Virus record (IMG/VR): IMGVR_UViG_3300020469_000014
Location: 1 to 64,000 of that record
Reading direction: 5' to 3' (one strand)
Source of the DNA: an uncultured virus (IMG/VR IMGVR_UViG_3300020469_000014)
Lineage: Duplodnaviria > Heunggongvirae > Uroviricota > Caudoviricetes
Length of the DNA: 64,000 bases
Shown here: positions 695 through 26,945 of the stretch, piece after piece
How the letters are laid out: every line of letters begins with the position of its first letter
How positions within the stretch are numbered: position 1 is the first letter of the stretch
Program-made: the position numbers and the translations under genes
The notes under the pieces: model-generated
What the model was told of the DNA's origin: nothing
The model's input: the letters and a program-made list of their open reading frames with translations, nothing else
Database searches by the model: none

Positions 695-3600
695 TTAGAT
701 TATGACAACATAAGTTCTACCTTCTTCGATGACCGCATACTCTGTTTCGGCATTACCAAAGGTGTTAACTTGACCAATTCCAACGTAAGTTGCCCGAGCG
801 AGAGATTCCTTAGATCCAGCAAGTCCTTTGAATCTTCCTTGACTCTCGTACCCAGCAAAGGTAAAGGATTCGACAGCTGATCCACTTGTCTGGTAAAGAA
901 CTGCAACACCAATACCAATCGAAGGTGTGAAATCGACAAATGGGTGTACAAGAGGTGTATTGGAGAATGTAAATGTTCCAGATGTGCCTGGATCTTTGTC
1001 GTCTCCGTAGTATCCAAATACTTGGATTTGTTTTGTAGCACCAACACCAGAGATTGTAGTAATGCCAGATGTGCCTGGATCTCTGTCGTCTCCATAGTAT
1101 CCGTAAACCTGATTGATTTCGGTAAGTGCAGATGCACCCTTGAGATCGAAGAGGACTGTGCCTTCCAGATCGTCCGCTGTAAATCTGACAATAGATGAAC
1201 CAGAGAAGGTAGCAGTACCAACACCAATTTCTCTGAAGAATCCTTGTTCTCTTGCACTTCCAGAGAATGTAACAATACCAGAACCAGTGAAAGCTGGAGT
1301 GTAATCGATGTCTGGATGTGTAAGTTCTCCAGATAATGTGAATGTACCAGATGGAACGAAGTCTTGGAATACTTGGAAGTATCTTGTTTCTGCAACACCT
1401 GTGATATCTGTAAGAATTGATCTTGCAGCAGATGGTTCGACGGTTGCCTCTGCAGCACCACCAAGAATACTGAATGTACCAGAACCTGTTGGAGACAGTC
1501 TGATACCAGTAACAACTCTTTGATCGTTGCTGAGTGTAAGAGTTCCAGATCCGTTGAACTGGCGTTGACGGAAGGCAACACTTTCTCCAGACAGTGTAAT
1601 TGTTGCAGTATCTTCTGGAGTCTGAGCAGAGAAGGATTCTTCTGCCGTTCCGTTGAATATAGAAGTTCCAGCGACAAGTTCTGCAGCAGCTGTTGCTTCT
1701 GCAATACCACCAACTGCGAATAGAGAACCAGAACCAACTTCGACGGATGATGTTGCTTCGTCTTGACCAGAACCACTGTAAGTAAATGTGCCGCCGCCAG
1801 ATGCTTGAACAGATGTTCTCTCGATTGTGAGAATACCACCTTCCTGACGAATAGTGATACCACCAGATGTGCCTGGATCTTTGTCGTCTCCATAGTATCC
1901 AAATACAGAAATTGGTCTTGCTTCTGCACCAGATGTCTGGAAGTCGAATAGGAGAGATCCAGCACCAAATTCTGTTGCAGGGATAAATCTCTCTTTTGCA
2001 CCAAACTCAACACCGTTAAGATCGCCAATTCCATCATCACCAATTTGACCATTGGCCTCAGTACCAATACCGAGAATGTAGATCGTACCATCAGTAAGAA
2101 TAGGAGCGTTGGTACGACCGATTGCCTTACCGTTAAGACTGATAATACCAGAGGTAGGATATTTGGGTACGAACCTTGTGGTAACAATGCCAGGATCTCC
2201 GTACTCTCCTCCAGTACCGCCAGGCAAGAAGGTAAAACCTGTTTCGATACCAATGTTCCTTTCGATACCATAATGAGGTGTGAAGTCGATTTGTGGGTGA
2301 TTGAGTTCTCCACTGAGTCGTAGAGTTGCCTTCTGAGATTGAGAAGCAAAGGCTGCACTGAGATCTGTATATCCACCACCAAAGATGTGTAGGTAAGTTC
2401 CTTCTGGAGGATCGAAGCTCGATCTCTCGATAGATGCTCCAGAGAATGTAGTAATACCAGAAGCGGGTGGAACGATAATCCTTCTGTAGGTTGTAAACCC
2501 AACAGCTTGAGTTTGTTGAAGGGTGATATTTCCAGATCCAACAAAGTCTTTGGTGACACTCTCGTTTGCAGTATCGTAGATATCGAATAGAACAGTTCCT
2601 TCTGGAGTCTGAGCAATGTATCTTTCTTCTGCACCACTAACGAAGTCGAATAGAGATGTTGTACTACTTGCAACTGCAACTCTCTCGACTCCAGTACCAG
2701 ATACGATAAGTGAACCAGAACCAACCCAACTTGGGATGAACTGAGTAATCGTGTCCGAGATCTGTGGGAATACAAGTTTTCCGTATGGGAAACGAGATTC
2801 TGTTGGTGCTGGCTCTGTAATGAATCCAGCATCTTCGTAACCCTGATTGATTTCTTGTGAATTGAAACCAGTGTAGTGTGGATATAAGAATTGATCGTAT
2901 GCAGGTCCGCCAACAGAACTGATGCCAAGTTCACCGTAGTCTTGAGACACAGTGTTGTCATCAAATCCGATACCATATTGACTAGTCTTATCGAAGGAAG
3001 GTAATATCTCAACACCACCAGATCCTTGGTCGTATGTGAGACCACCGTTACTAAAGAGAACGTCTTGAGAGTATCTGTTGAGTTCGTCATCAAATGTTTC
3101 AGTACCAGAAGCCTGTCCAAGTATGTTGAGTCCGAATCCAAAGCTTGGGTCTCCAAGAATACCACCGTAGTTTTCGTTCTCAGTACCAAAGAGTATAGAA
3201 GACTCATTGTAAGAATCTGTATTCTTCTCACCAGATGCCGCACCATTGACGAATAATGTTCCGCCAAACTCGTTTTCTTTGTGTTGTATAACTCTTGCGT
3301 ATGTCTGATTCTCTTCTCTACCCTGACTGAAGGTTCCTGTACCAACACCAGAGATATGTGGTGCAAATACCTGACCAGCAGTACCACCAAGATATGAGTA
3401 GTCTCCCTGTAAGTATGCCTTGGTACTGGATTCAACTGCACCACCGATACTGAATAATGTACCAGATCCTTCTGGTATGACTGGTGTAATAGACTCGTTA
3501 CCAGTACCATTAATTGTAAATTGACCTTCTTCACCAAATACTGTATGTTGTGGAGCCTGTGATAACCATAGTTCTCCAGATATGAATATACCAGCATTGT

Positions 3601-5356
3601 GTGTAGCAATACCAGATTTTCCAGAACTCTCGTATTGAATTGCAGATGCAACGTCGAGATCTTCTGAAAGTAAGAAGGTTGCTGTTCCTGTAAATCCAAC
3701 AGTCTGTCTGGAAAGTGAAGTTTCTCCAAGAGAGAATGTAACTTCTCTGTTGGGGTAGTGTTGACCACCAATCTGAACGTAGTTGAAGTCTGGAAGTAGG
3801 AATCCCCAGTTTTCTGCCGACTTGGGAATAGTCTCGTCGTTTGTATTGATTGGTCCCCAATCTTCGTAAGATTGAGTTGGAGTAGCAGTAATAAGACCCC
3901 AATCGAGCTCTTCTGTTTTTTGATCTCCAAGAGGCGATATCCAAGAAGGAGTGTAAACAGGTGTACCCTGTTGCATCCCTCCAGAGAAATCAAACAGATT
4001 TGTATTCTCGTAGTCCTTGACAAGTACAACATCTGTTGCCGAACCAGAAGTATTGAAGAGGACTGTTCCTTCGTCTCCCTGTTTAACAAGTTTGATACCA
4101 GAAACAGATCCAGTAAGTCTAACAAGTGCCTTTTTAGTATCGGGAAGTAAGACTCTACTTTCAGCACCAGTTCCAGAGATATCAAAGAGAACTGTGTTAT
4201 CAACAGTTGCAGGGACAAATGCCTCATCTGCACTACCAGATATGGCGACTTCACCCTCAAGACCGAAGATTGTACTTTGTGGAGCCTGACTGAAGAAGTT
4301 GGTTCCAGAGAATGTTCCTGTACCAGATCCAGAGTATGCAAAGAGTGATCCTTCTGCAGCAATTCCTTCTTTCTTGAACGTACCAGAACCGTGGTATCCC
4401 CTGACAAATAGATCGTGGCCCCTGACAAAGGTTGACTGATACTCGTCGAAGAAGATCCCACCTTGTAATTTTTGTAATATTACACCGTAATCTTCAGCAG
4501 ATGTAGGTGTATCTAATATACCTCCGTAACTCTCGAATGCTACCTGATCTTCGTCAGAGAATGATCTCTCCTTCGCAAGAGAATCTGTGATAACCTCGTC
4601 AAATGTGACATTGAGATCATCGAAGGATGCTCCTTCTCTAACTGTAATTGTGCCGTTATCTTCTTTCTCGAATACGTCAGACTCTGATCTGGCGTAGTTG
4701 TATATGACTTTCTCAACATCAAATAGTCGGGTATCTCCACCCTTCGCCCTAAAGGCGTTTTTGATAATTGGTAAGTAGGCTTCGTTGTATGGAGTCTGTT
4801 GTTCTCCAGTTACGGATACAGAGCCACTACCATTATAAGAATAAACTTGGTCTAGGTCGTTTGCAGACAGCCCTGACTTGGCAATCGCACCAACACCTAT
4901 GTAATTTCCTCTAGATATAGATTCTTCTGCTGTCCCAGATGGGATGAAGATGACAGCTCCCGCTGCTCCAAGATCTGGTATGACGACTCTTTCGAGACCG
5001 TTACCAAATTCATGAACAGTACCAGTACCAACCCAAGGCACTGCTGCAGATACTAGTGCAGAATCATTAACATCGAATAGGACTGTATTTGCGTTCTCTG
5101 GAATCCACTGAGTTCTTGATCTACCAAACTCGTCTCTTCCGTCTACTACATTTATTGGACCAAACGGTAGCACATCTGATGTATCGTTGATGAGTCCGTG
5201 GTCATTTACAAAGAAGAAATTCTCGTCTCTTTCGGGTTCTACATGTTGATTTATGTCGCCATAGTCAATATTCTCCACTGACGCGACGGTGATATTACCA
5301 CCGTCAAATGTAGTGAATAAATCTATCTTCGTATTGTCGTAGACAAATACTGTCAA
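695..5356 (-). CDS. Large virion structural protein (1553 aa) with internal repeats
   Basis: Long G/S/T/F-rich ORF in the late module; TTG start with GGGGGA upstream; repeats VxGYYGDDxDPGTSG (x3), HPxIDxTP, SQAPQ. Confidence 0.85.
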   Translation of the reverse strand: MTVFVYDNTKIDLFTTFDGGNITVASVENIDYGDINQHVEPERDENFFFVNDHGLINDTSDVLPFGPINVVDGRDEFGRSRTQWIPENANTVLFDVNDSALVSAAVPWVGTGTVHEFGNGLERVVIPDLGAAGAVIFIPSGTAEESISRGNYIGVGAIAKSGLSANDLDQVYSYNGSGSVSVTGEQQTPYNEAYLPIIKNAFRAKGGDTRLFDVEKVIYNYARSESDVFEKEDNGTITVREGASFDDLNVTFDEVITDSLAKERSFSDEDQVAFESYGGILDTPTSAEDYGVILQKLQGGIFFDEYQSTFVRGHDLFVRGYHGSGTFKKEGIAAEGSLFAYSGSGTGTFSGTNFFSQAPQSTIFGLEGEVAISGSADEAFVPATVDNTVLFDISGTGAESRVLLPDTKKALVRLTGSVSGIKLVKQGDEGTVLFNTSGSATDVVLVKDYENTNLFDFSGGMQQGTPVYTPSWISPLGDQKTEELDWGLITATPTQSYEDWGPINTNDETIPKSAENWGFLLPDFNYVQIGGQHYPNREVTFSLGETSLSRQTVGFTGTATFLLSEDLDVASAIQYESSGKSGIATHNAGIFISGELWLSQAPQHTVFGEEGQFTINGTGNESITPVIPEGSGTLFSIGGAVESSTKAYLQGDYSYLGGTAGQVFAPHISGVGTGTFSQGREENQTYARVIQHKENEFGGTLFVNGAASGEKNTDSYNESSILFGTENENYGGILGDPSFGFGLNILGQASGTETFDDELNRYSQDVLFSNGGLTYDQGSGGVEILPSFDKTSQYGIGFDDNTVSQDYGELGISSVGGPAYDQFLYPHYTGFNSQEINQGYEDAGFITEPAPTESRFPYGKLVFPQISDTITQFIPSWVGSGSLIVSGTGVERVAVASSTTSLFDFVSGAEERYIAQTPEGTVLFDIYDTANESVTKDFVGSGNITLQQTQAVGFTTYRRIIVPPASGITTFSGASIERSSFDPPEGTYLHIFGGGYTDLSAAFASQSQKATLRLSGELNHPQIDFTPHYGIERNIGIETGFTFLPGGTGGEYGDPGIVTTRFVPKYPTSGIISLNGKAIGRTNAPILTDGTIYILGIGTEANGQIGDDGIGDLNGVEFGAKERFIPATEFGAGSLLFDFQTSGAEARPISVFGYYGDDKDPGTSGGITIRQEGGILTIERTSVQASGGGTFTYSGSGQDEATSSVEVGSGSLFAVGGIAEATAAAELVAGTSIFNGTAEESFSAQTPEDTATITLSGESVAFRQRQFNGSGTLTLSNDQRVVTGIRLSPTGSGTFSILGGAAEATVEPSAARSILTDITGVAETRYFQVFQDFVPSGTFTLSGELTHPDIDYTPAFTGSGIVTFSGSAREQGFFREIGVGTATFSGSSIVRFTADDLEGTVLFDLKGASALTEINQVYGYYGDDRDPGTSGITTISGVGATKQIQVFGYYGDDKDPGTSGTFTFSNTPLVHPFVDFTPSIGIGVAVLYQTSGSAVESFTFAGYESQGRFKGLAGSKESLARATYVGIGQVNTFGNAETEYAVIEEGRTYVVII
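700..4461 (-). CDS. Putative overprinted ORF in the +1 frame of the 1553-aa gene (1253 aa)
   Basis: No stop for 1253 codons despite 38 TAY codons in that frame; ends 5 nt before the host gene stop; translation unproven. Confidence 0.4.
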   Translation of the reverse strand: MGSSSTSISQPLSGATIYLSGDTTVLVRSRKKELLQKDHSLHTLDLVQEHSLEPTSSVRLHKVQSSVLRVKSPYLVVQMRHLSLQLLITQFSLISLELVLKVESYFPILKRHLLDLLDLFLVSNLLNRETKEQSSSILLVRQQMLYLSRTTRIQICLISLEGCNRVHLFTLLLGYRLLEIKKQKSSIGVLLLLLQLNLTKIGDQSIQTTRLFPSRQKTGDSYFQTSTTFRLVVNTTPTEKLHSLLEKLHFPDRLLDLQEQQPSYFQKISTLHLQFNTRVLENLVLLHTMLVYSYLENYGYHRLHNIQYLVKKVNLQLMVLVTSLLHQSYQKDLVHYSVSVVQLNPVPRHTYRETTHILVVLLVRYLHHISLVLVQEPSVRVEKRIRHTQELYNTKKTSLAEHYSSMVRHLVRRIQILTMSLLYSLVLRTKTTVVFLETQALDSDSTYLDRLLVLKHLMTNSTDTLKTFSLVTVVSHTTKDLVVLRYYLPSIRLVNMVSDLMTTLCLKTTVNLASVLLADLHTINSYIHTTLVSIHKKSIRVTKMLDSLQSQHQQNLVSHTENLYSHRSRTRLLSSSQVGLVLVHLSYLVLESRELQLQVVQHLYSTSLVVQKKDTLLRLQKELFYSISTILQTRVSPKTLLDLEISPFNKLKLLGLQPTEGLSFHPLLVLLHSLEHLSRDRASILQKELTYTSLVVDIQISVQPLLLNLRRQLYDSVENSITHKSTSHLIMVSKGTLVSKQVLPSCLAVLEESTEILALLPQGSYPNILPLVLSVLTVRQSVVPTLLFLLMVRSTFSVLVLRPMVKLVMMELAILTVLSLVQKRDLSLQQNLVLDLSYSTSRHLVQKQDQFLYLDTMETTKIQAHLVVSLFVRKVVFSQSREHLFKHLAAAHLLTVVLVKTKQHHPSKLVLVLYSQLVVLQKQQLLQNLSLELLYSTERQKNPSLLRLQKILQQLHCLEKVLPSVNASSTDLELLHSATIKELLLVSDCLQQVLVHSVFLVVLQRQPSNHLLQDQFLQISQVLQKQDTSKYSKTSFHLVHSHYLENLHIQTSITLQLSLVLVLLHSLEVQENKDSSEKLVLVLLPSLVHLLSDLQRTIWKAQSSSISRVHLHLPKSIRFTDTMETTEIQAHLALLQSLVLVLQNKSKYLDTTETTKIQAHLEHLHSPIHLLYTHLSISHLRLVLVLQFFTRQVDQLSNPLPLLGTRVKEDSKDLLDLRNLSLGQLTLELVKLTPLVMPKQSMRSSKKVELMLS
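978..1906. repeat. Three near-identical ~40-bp coding repeats (about 978-1021, 1065-1105, 1864-1906)
   Basis: ccagatgtgcctggatct(t/c)tgtcgtctcc(a/g)tagtatcc occurs three times; encodes GYYGDDxDPGTSG. Confidence 0.85.
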
Positions 5357-5370
5357 AGGTTTCCCCCGAA

Positions 5371-5406
5371 ATAAAAAGACCCTGCCTTAATTATAAAGCA
5401 GAGTCC
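5371..5406 (-). terminator. Rho-independent terminator-like hairpin
   Basis: Minus strand GACTCTGCTTT-ataatt-AAGGCAGGGTC followed by TTTTATTT. Confidence 0.6.
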
Positions 5407-5415
5407 ACATATTGA

Positions 5416-5422
5416 TATTTAG
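5416..5422 (-). promoter_or_regulatory. Late promoter CTAAATA
   Basis: Cyanophage late-promoter variant in intergenic gap. Confidence 0.55.
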
Positions 5423-5430
5423 TGTTTCTA

Positions 5431-6481: not shown

Positions 6482-6489
6482 TATTTATA
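6482..6489 (-). promoter_or_regulatory. Late promoter TATAAATA
   Basis: Exact consensus overlapping the stop of 6485..7159. Confidence 0.75.
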
Positions 6490-7514: not shown

Positions 7515-7724
7515 TTATTTATCTAATTTACTCAAAATGAGTTTCATCATATCTTTTAGTTCATCAACATCATCCTTTAGTTTATCCATTTCCTCTGCTT
7601 CTACTAACTTTCTCTCTTTTAATTTGAGGTAGTTATTGTATGCAGTATCATTGCAATTAAGAATTGCACCACTATCTTCATCTCGATAAAGAGAATTACT
7701 ATCTTTCACTTTTACTTTATTCAT
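7515..7724 (-). CDS. Conserved small coiled-coil protein
   Basis: 69 aa, LYRD..SGAILN motif; coupled to the VrlC-like gene. Confidence 0.7.
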   Translation of the reverse strand: MNKVKVKDSNSLYRDEDSGAILNCNDTAYNNYLKLKERKLVEAEEMDKLKDDVDELKDMMKLILSKLDK

Positions 7725-26937: not shown

Positions 26938-26945
26938 TATTTATA
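26938..26945 (-). promoter_or_regulatory. Late promoter TATAAATA
   Basis: Exact consensus 22 nt upstream of ATG 26916. Confidence 0.8.

Follow-up and report, generated by a model that had tools for sequence, protein, structure and literature searches.

What keeps an unused reading frame free of stop codons over more than a thousand codons of a phage gene? The question is raised by a locus in a 64,000-nucleotide (nt) stretch of DNA, positions 1 to 64,000 of the IMG/VR record IMGVR_UViG_3300020469_000014, which derives from an uncultured virus of the Caudoviricetes, a marine cyanophage, and is here called the window. A gene of 1553 codons with a TTG start (positions 695–5356, minus strand; the host gene) carries in its +1 frame an open reading frame (ORF) of 1253 codons that begins with GTG and has no internal stop (positions 700–4461, minus strand, open from stop to stop over 700–4479). 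The original prediction, made from the sequence alone, proposed that selection keeps this frame open, either as an overprinted protein or as the product of a programmed +1 frameshift. We find that purifying selection, acting through synonymous codon choice, purges TAA, TAG and TGA over the C-terminal ~80% of the host gene, and does so in each of the two sense frames not in use. The purge is specific to stops, to the strand and to the region, and it is kept across the gene family, complete in the +1 frame and in long blocks in the +2 frame. The +1 and +2 frames encode no sequence-constrained protein.

The ORF listing and the translation agree that the 1253-codon frame ends 5 nt before the host stop, and its translation returns the amino acid counts reported earlier, with 38 Tyr and no stops, 1 Trp and 6 Cys. 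Leu, Val, Ser and Gln make up 50% of it. In the +1 frame there are 15 stops within host codons 1–292 and none over the next 1259, after which comes the ORF's own stop. The N-terminal ~292 host codons (positions 4480–5356, minus strand) serve as an internal control, with stops in both alternative frames at the expected density (14–15 versus 18.4 expected in +1; 22 versus 26.8 in +2). The avoidance is visible at the codon junctions. In host codons 298–1552 none of the 38 codons of the form NTA stands before a purine, compared with 70 of 102 (69%) for NAA, 92 of 155 (59%) for NCA and 51 of 90 (57%) for NGA; in the first 298 host codons NTA precedes a purine in 14 of 30 cases.

The significance of the open frame was assessed by permuting synonymous codons within the region in 2000 trials. 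The permutations keep the amino acid sequence and the region's already biased codon usage, and composition is thereby controlled. The expectation was 24.8 ± 3.1 +1 stops compared to 0 observed (z = −8.4), the minimum in any of the 2000 trials was 15, and the longest +1 open run was 451 codons compared to the 1259 observed. With the codon usage of neighbouring genes the expected number of +1 stops rises to 37.6, and with that of the gene's own N-terminal part to 61.3. The N-terminal 292 codons, like eight other genes of the window, fit their own permutations, with longest +1 runs of 42–140 codons. The earlier remark that off-frame ORFs in the giant neighbouring genes reach only about 130 amino acids agrees with the longest +1 runs of 134, 140 and 109 codons that we measured there. 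In the synonymous shuffle that the original prediction had proposed, the length of the ORF thus lies far beyond the permutations and no other gene shows its equal. Its claim that selection holds the +1 frame open is borne out, as the avoidance concerns stop-forming junctions, is confined to the region, and is kept in relatives near synonymous saturation. Its caveat that a local codon-context bias could contribute is not, the avoidance being specific to stop junctions and missing both in the N-terminal 292 codons and in every neighbouring gene.

The picture of a single open frame proved incomplete: the +1 openness stands, but +2 stops, in-frame start codons and U-runs are purged as well. The +2 frame contains 46 stops compared to 96.4 ± 6.2 expected by permutation (z = −8.1). 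The three antisense frames, with 32–103 stops, are at expectation (z between −0.5 and +0.5), and in thirteen other genes of the window both +1 and +2 stops fit the permutations. Together the two purges leave tracts free of stops in all three sense frames. The longest, of ~1197 nt, lies at positions 813–2008 (minus strand, as are all those that follow) and includes a +2 ORF of 398–399 codons at 810–2006; others span 2136–2638 (504 nt), 2667–2932 (267 nt), 3534–3991 (459 nt) and, at the opening of the +1 frame, 4260–4481 (223 nt). Elsewhere in the 134-kilobase contig no stretch free of stop triplets exceeds 145 nt on either strand. Each of TAA, TAG and TGA occurs 0 times in the 1196-nt tract compared to 14–25 expected, and the other triplets that are rare there are G+C-rich and rare in the neighbouring genes too. 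When the 64 off-frame triplets of nine orthologues are pooled, TAA and TAG in the +1 phase and TGA, TAA and TAG in the +2 phase fall within the six most depleted, while the most enriched are the pyrimidine or C-for-T counterparts of stops (TAT, CAA, CAG, CGA and TGG).

In bins of 50–100 codons the +2 stops form a mosaic. Some bins have about as many stops as expected or more (9 observed versus 5.1 expected, 10 versus 7.0, 8 versus 8.4), and others are empty (0 versus 8.6 at codons 501–600; 0 versus 25 at codons 1151–1500). The rare +1 stops of other lineages sit inside blocks of the first kind ("+2-closed"). The +2 frame has almost no start triplets (1 ATG, 0 GTG and 4 TTG), so that ribosomes cannot enter it by initiation and only those shifting into the frame can be affected by it.

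Two further signatures accompany the missing stops. Among the in-frame codons of the region there is a single ATG. Of the 75 Val codons one is GTG, and of the 76 Leu codons one is TTG, compared with 64 of 847 and 109 of 624, respectively, in six neighbouring genes. The GTG and TTG depletion is alike in 12 orthologues and in the phage S-CAM1. In-frame CTG is not depleted, which indicates that the GTG and TTG purge is not a by-product of TGA avoidance. Runs of four or more T number 1 compared to 24.6 expected here and 0–2 compared to 16–26 in nine orthologues; the neighbouring genes have 90 compared to 175 expected. A-runs are normal in the region, and in-frame slippery heptamers of the form X XXY YYZ number 1 compared to 4.7 expected. 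The depletion of ATG in the 1196-nt tract (2 versus ~22) was considered as a further signal and dismissed: it arises because Met, Cys and Trp are nearly absent from the protein, and ATG in the +1 phase is at its permutation expectation.

The same pattern is found in relatives. A scan of IMG/VR yielded 60 loci with 38–100% identity. In 15 of 62 loci a neighbouring gene provided the longest open frame, and the other 47 were analysed for the orthologue; thirteen neighbours from the 15 loci, of 1210–1489 codons each, provide control genes and contain 44–66 +1 stops. In the 47 loci the +1 stops of the orthologue are dense over the first ~300 codons and almost absent afterwards. Among 24 distinct complete orthologues there are 0–4 +1 stops each after alignment column ~500; nine have none and possess a fully open +1 frame of 1219–1267 codons, including some at 41–42% identity to the host protein. 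At least the last 611 +1 codons are open in all 24, and in every one the open frame reaches the end of the gene. Permutations in 12 orthologues gave 0–4 +1 stops compared to 12.5–29.8 expected and 25–69 +2 stops compared to 88–115 expected; in their N-terminal parts the +2 purge is absent. Stop-free tracts on the sense strand of the relatives extend to 1.8–2.1 kilobases (maximum 2136 nt), compared with at most 146 nt on the opposite strand. A distant positional homologue from another genus, gp232 of S-CAM1 (2130 codons), has 15 +1 stops compared to 40 expected and 56 +2 stops compared to 166 expected, and its last ~1000 codons are open in all three frames.

In 15 of the 24 orthologues there are 1–4 inherited +1 stops with both flanks still stop-free, which fits a cost per stop rather than selection on one indivisible ORF. 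The few internal +1 stops occur at sites shared by several lineages, within the host motifs GN[IV][NS]LFDI and NGGLT[FY]DQGSGG. In the window gene 174 single changes that are synonymous in the host frame would create a +1 stop. By our own arithmetic, at the four-fold divergence of 0.26 from phage S-SSM7, whose orthologue retains a +1 ORF of 1248 codons, ~18 such changes would be expected, and 0 are present. This and the control of composition by the permutations led us to reject a relic or composition as the cause. Four IMG/VR loci (L051, L056, L057 and L026) carry an N-terminal insertion of ~165 codons at alignment columns ~325–475, in which off-frame stops have normal density and which displaces the opening of the +1 frame.

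Does the +1 frame encode a second protein? Conservation in orthologues gave a divided answer: the frame stays open, but the reduced synonymous divergence that a dual-coding region should show was not found. At four-fold sites the region differs from S-SSM7 by 0.26 and the N-terminal control by 0.28, compared with 0.16–0.21 in three neighbouring genes, and no window of 30 codons falls below 0.79 of the expected synonymous variability. The +1 peptide diverges by 0.374, the +2 peptide by 0.384 and the host protein by 0.214. The dNN/dNS ratio of the +1 frame, obtained by an OLGenie-like method, is 0.74 [0.69–0.79], compared to 0.76 [0.64–0.91] in the stop-filled N-terminal control. The overprinted protein of the original prediction is therefore not supported, since synonymous divergence is unreduced and the +1 peptide is unconstrained. 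We found no conserved +1 start or upstream motif, and orthologues do not share the first +1 start that follows the opening. There are 142 ATG, GTG or TTG triplets in the +1 phase, which is no enrichment beyond the neighbouring genes (TTG 78/53 here, 632/460 there).

A search for relatives of the +1 protein in a collection of 5.8 billion proteins scored the 8000 candidates sharing the most words with it, and among these there was one match, P0003, an ENA gene call of 722 amino acids. Over ~700 codons P0003 switches back and forth between stretches of an orthologue's host frame and stretches of its +1 frame, and meets no stop. We take it to be an assembly riddled with indels rather than a relative; gene callers run straight through such assemblies of the host gene, since none of the frames has stops.

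The evidence for a programmed frameshift is also negative, as neither a conserved slip site nor local synonymous conservation was found for the predicted +1 product. The A-rich patch and GTG that had been pointed out at the opening of the frame are not conserved (in S-SSM7 the patch reads GAA CAA CAA TTA, and other orthologues differ as well). Four codons into the 399-codon +2 ORF stands GCA AAA GAG. As a candidate slip site GCA AAA GAR was rejected, the sequence being GCG AAG GAA in 8 of the 24 orthologues and the motif absent in 7 others. The only X XXY YYZ heptamer of the region, found at codon 856, is not close to any frame opening. Frame switching during evolution is not borne out either: comparison of the +1 and +2 translations with the host-frame proteins of the 24 orthologues gave no cross-frame match at E < 1e-3. 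Every internal indel in the 9 closest pairs (79–98% nt identity) is a multiple of three; gaps of other lengths are limited to two divergent pairs, where they compensate each other nearby and may be alignment noise, and to a single gap of 2 nt that lies upstream of the start. In contigs from two RNA libraries and from two DNA runs the gene has no inserted or deleted letters, although contigs drop rare variants, and its presence in RNA-library contigs is a sign of neither transcription nor translation.

These results lead us to propose, tentatively, that the region is a termination-free zone in which out-of-frame ribosomes must not terminate, and that partial products of a virion protein built of repeats are selected against. 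We take the cause to be translational because only a machine that reads triplets can tell the +1 frame from the +2 and the antisense frames. Ribosomes would go out of frame after a slip or after an out-of-frame internal start, and selection would see the termination of such ribosomes. The purges of off-frame stops, in-frame starts and slippery U-runs would each cut the release of clean partial products. The fragments thus avoided would be N-terminal ones with a short junk tail and C-terminal ones from internal starts or re-initiation. Such fragments could poison the assembly of a multimeric fibre of repeats, the protein being probably multimeric, and a small error rate per chain would be amplified where many intact chains are needed per particle. 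It is possible, though doubtful, that cyanomyoviruses keep a kilobase-scale zone of this kind in one tail-module family as a new class of coding-sequence constraint that involves no second protein. In the boldest form of the proposal, frame wandering may be frequent, and the virions may have deliberately heterogeneous fibre chains or be protected from poisonous fragments.

Several points weigh against this proposal. We infer its mechanism, and both the out-of-frame ribosomes and the harm done by fragments belong to that inference. A frameshifted chain that runs on is still a defective chain and a costlier one, so that long junk tails must be assumed to be milder than clean truncations. Neighbouring genes of 2505–3007 codons and a downstream "tail fiber protein" lack the purge, and the model must therefore assume that the host protein is special. 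The block-like pattern of +2 stops looks as much like discrete ORFs as like a general mitigation of errors. Structure prediction gives no support on how the protein folds or oligomerises: an AlphaFold2 model of its last 450 residues built with 18 orthologues had a mean predicted local distance difference test (pLDDT) score of 27.5 and no usable fold. Finally, the sign of the effect is opposite to that of the ambush hypothesis, which holds that selection favours off-frame stops because they cut frameshifted translation short (Seligmann & Pollock 2004, summarised in PMC8410138).

Other explanations share part of the evidence. We regard as unlikely a translated overprinted gene, in the +1 frame and perhaps in the +2 blocks, under such weak constraint that its composition or length matters and its sequence does not. 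The +1 frame that is wholly open in 9 of 24 orthologues and always open to the gene end, the ORF-like +2 blocks and the 142 potential start triplets in the +1 phase would suit such a gene. The undiminished synonymous divergence with no local dip, a +1 peptide that diverges like the +2 peptide, and a dNN/dNS ratio equal to that of the non-coding control do not. Neither do the lack of a conserved start or upstream signal, with +1 starts no richer than in the neighbours and a +2 frame without starts, or the inherited +1 stops with open flanks in 15 of 24 orthologues; the +1 frame has no Pfam or PHROG match, and its sole database match among the 8000 candidates scored is the indel-ridden gene call. 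Translation of the alternative frames could instead be selected for its own sake, with ribosomes staying on a long mRNA and shielding it from degradation or keeping it unfolded. Ribosome shielding of mRNA has been proposed for ambigrammatic narnaviruses, and here it would account for openness without peptide constraint, for frames that stay open in every orthologue as far as the gene's 3' end, for the purge of U-runs as possible ribonuclease targets, and for the gene's weak start, a TTG preceded by a hairpin that resembles a terminator. We nevertheless consider it quite unlikely, given that in-frame ribosomes already cover the mRNA, that +1 starts are not enriched beyond the neighbours and the +2 frame has none, that other long late genes lack the feature, and that junk chains of up to 1250 residues would be costly.

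A further scenario concerns indel tolerance or evolvability: with the alternative frames open, a frameshift followed by compensating mutations would give new full-length variants of a host-recognition protein under diversifying selection. The fast evolution of the host protein, with its ratio of nonsynonymous to synonymous divergence (dN/dS) of about 0.3–0.4, and the passage of P0003 across frames for ~700 codons without a stop are consistent with it. We judge it very unlikely, however, because cross-frame matches are absent among the 24 orthologues, the repeats are all in phase, the indels of the closest pairs are all multiples of three and T-runs, the main source of indels, are strongly avoided; second-order selection would moreover need to hold more than 100 sites. 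A cause outside translation is highly improbable. It could be avoidance of U-purine-purine in RNA or single-stranded DNA through a nuclease or binding protein, or an artefact of composition or repeats. A purge that is independent of frame and specific to the strand over up to 1.2 kilobases here and 2.1 kilobases in relatives, together with the avoidance of U-runs, would fit it, and degenerate repeats could freeze codon contexts. Yet phase matters, the +1 frame being fully purged and the +2 frame only in blocks; TGG and TAT/TAC are enriched rather than avoided; and the first 292 codons of the same transcript and all neighbouring genes are unaffected. The permutations control composition, the repeats are only 60–88% alike, and near-saturated orthologues keep the purge. 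To programmed ribosomal frameshifting or transcriptional slippage, yielding alternative C-terminal parts from the +1 and/or −1 frame, we assign the smallest chance. Trans-frame ORFs do run open to the gene end, and the A-rich patch at the +1 opening and GCA AAA GAG near the start of the +2 ORF are suggestive. Neither site is conserved, however, enhanced synonymous conservation is seen in no window, slippery heptamers and U-runs are depleted rather than retained, and several lineages have +1 stops as far down as codons 840–1020 with the sequence upstream still purged. The RNA-library contigs likewise lack inserted or deleted letters, with the reservation that contigs drop rare variants.

Known systems offer partial parallels to the termination-free region. 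Phage genes embedded in others on the same strand include Rz1 inside Rz (+1) of lambda, and E in D and B/K in A of phiX174; they have their own starts and sequence constraint, and measure from tens to about 150 codons. As with Rz1 and phiX174 E, a long ORF in an alternative sense frame lies here inside a gene, is kept in relatives and can be detected by permutation. It differs from them in its 1253 codons, in lacking peptide constraint or a conserved start, and in the purge of a second frame. Frameshifting in phage structural genes is represented by the tail assembly chaperone G/GT (−1) and by the capsid and tail proteins of Listeria phage PSA (+1). Like these, the host gene belongs to a structural module and has a trans-frame open to the gene end that could give an alternative C-terminus; unlike them, it has no conserved slip site or stimulator, and slippery sequences are depleted. 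To our knowledge, the open stretch is 10–100 times longer than any known trans-frame extension.

The nearest published analogue is the reverse-frame ORF of narnaviruses, ~1000 codons long, which is kept open by CUA, UUA and UCA being avoided in a manner that is not compositional and which the authors argue to be coding (Dinan et al. 2020, PMC7010960). As far as that account goes, the ambigrammatic narnaviruses share with the host gene a specific avoidance of stop-forming codons or junctions beyond composition. They differ in that a single frame on the opposite strand of an RNA virus, covering nearly all of its genome, is concerned there, and here two frames on the same strand over part of a gene in a double-stranded DNA myovirus. 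The narnavirus ORF is moreover argued to be coding, whereas our tests for coding constraint were negative. With the ambush hypothesis, in the form summarised in PMC8410138, our case shares selection on off-frame stops through synonymous codons, but here the stops are removed. The passages of PMC8410138 on off-frame stops describe only their enrichment or neutrality, and no gene-specific purging. Our literature search found no report of a phage gene in which off-frame stops are purged in a gene-specific way, and the removal of stops from both unused frames without a conserved protein fits no described mechanism.

Off-frame stops are usually held to be neutral or mildly useful; here one gene has been almost completely cleared of them in two frames, a state shared by an entire family of abundant ocean viruses, and no second protein accounts for it. 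If the cause is translational, the locus would offer the clearest case in nature of kilobases of sequence being shaped by what becomes of ribosomes that have shifted frame or started wrongly. It would also provide an engineerable test bed, in which stop insertions synonymous in the host frame could be introduced into S-SSM7 on Synechococcus WH8109. There are practical consequences too. Tests for overlapping genes that rely on ORF-length permutation and conserved openness can yield a very strong false call of dual coding, and assemblies with indel errors give plausible chimeric proteins from such genes.

The host gene is an orthologue of SSSM7_110 of S-SSM7 ("hypothetical protein", T4-like gene cluster 1333), with 80% nt identity. 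Its neighbours are annotated as virion structural, tail and tail-fibre proteins, which places it in a tail/fibre module. Divergence by codon position (third > first > second) identifies the annotated frame as coding. The protein is rich in Gly, Thr, Ser and Phe; residues 293–1552 (1260 residues, positions 695–4479) contain 1 Met, 0 Cys, 6 Trp and 13 His. It is built of degenerate internal repeats, 60–88% alike, and all 57 listed spacings are multiples of 3. The motif VFGYYGDD[KR]DPGTSG occurs three times in residues 293–1552 and is invariant across 18 orthologues. The protein evolves fast, with an amino acid divergence from S-SSM7 of 0.214–0.22 compared to 0.02–0.05 in neighbours of similar four-fold divergence. 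A Pfam search with the host and +1 frames returned no families, the only PHROGs match joins the host N-terminus to phrog_11522 (function unknown), a sequence search of the PDB gave no match below E 0.7, and the ESM Atlas gave no usable match.

The start of the host gene is most likely the TTG at 5356 (positions 5354–5356, minus strand). There is no ATG within the first 302 host codons. In the adjoining upstream stretch (positions 5357–5430, minus strand) GGGGGA lies ~8 nt before the TTG, which is directly preceded by a G+C stem with a T-run that resembles a terminator for the upstream gene of 335 codons. The S-SSM7 annotation begins 23 codons further in, at a GTG, though the 23 codons upstream of it are conserved. 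Three giant structural genes of 2505, 3000 and 3007 codons occupy positions 7724–35970 (minus strand), the first with orthologues annotated as DUF4815. They avoid T-runs and Shine–Dalgarno-like motifs about two-fold, and their off-frame stop counts are normal. The sequence TATAAATA, which we take to be the T4-type late-promoter consensus, has exact matches at 683–690, 6482–6489 and 26938–26945 (minus strand), each just upstream of a gene on the coding strand. The count of 3 in the window is not above the 4.4 expected by chance, and none lies inside the host gene. One match stands 5 nt past the host stop, ahead of the downstream "tail protein" gene of 152 codons, and its position suggests that this gene probably has a late promoter of its own.

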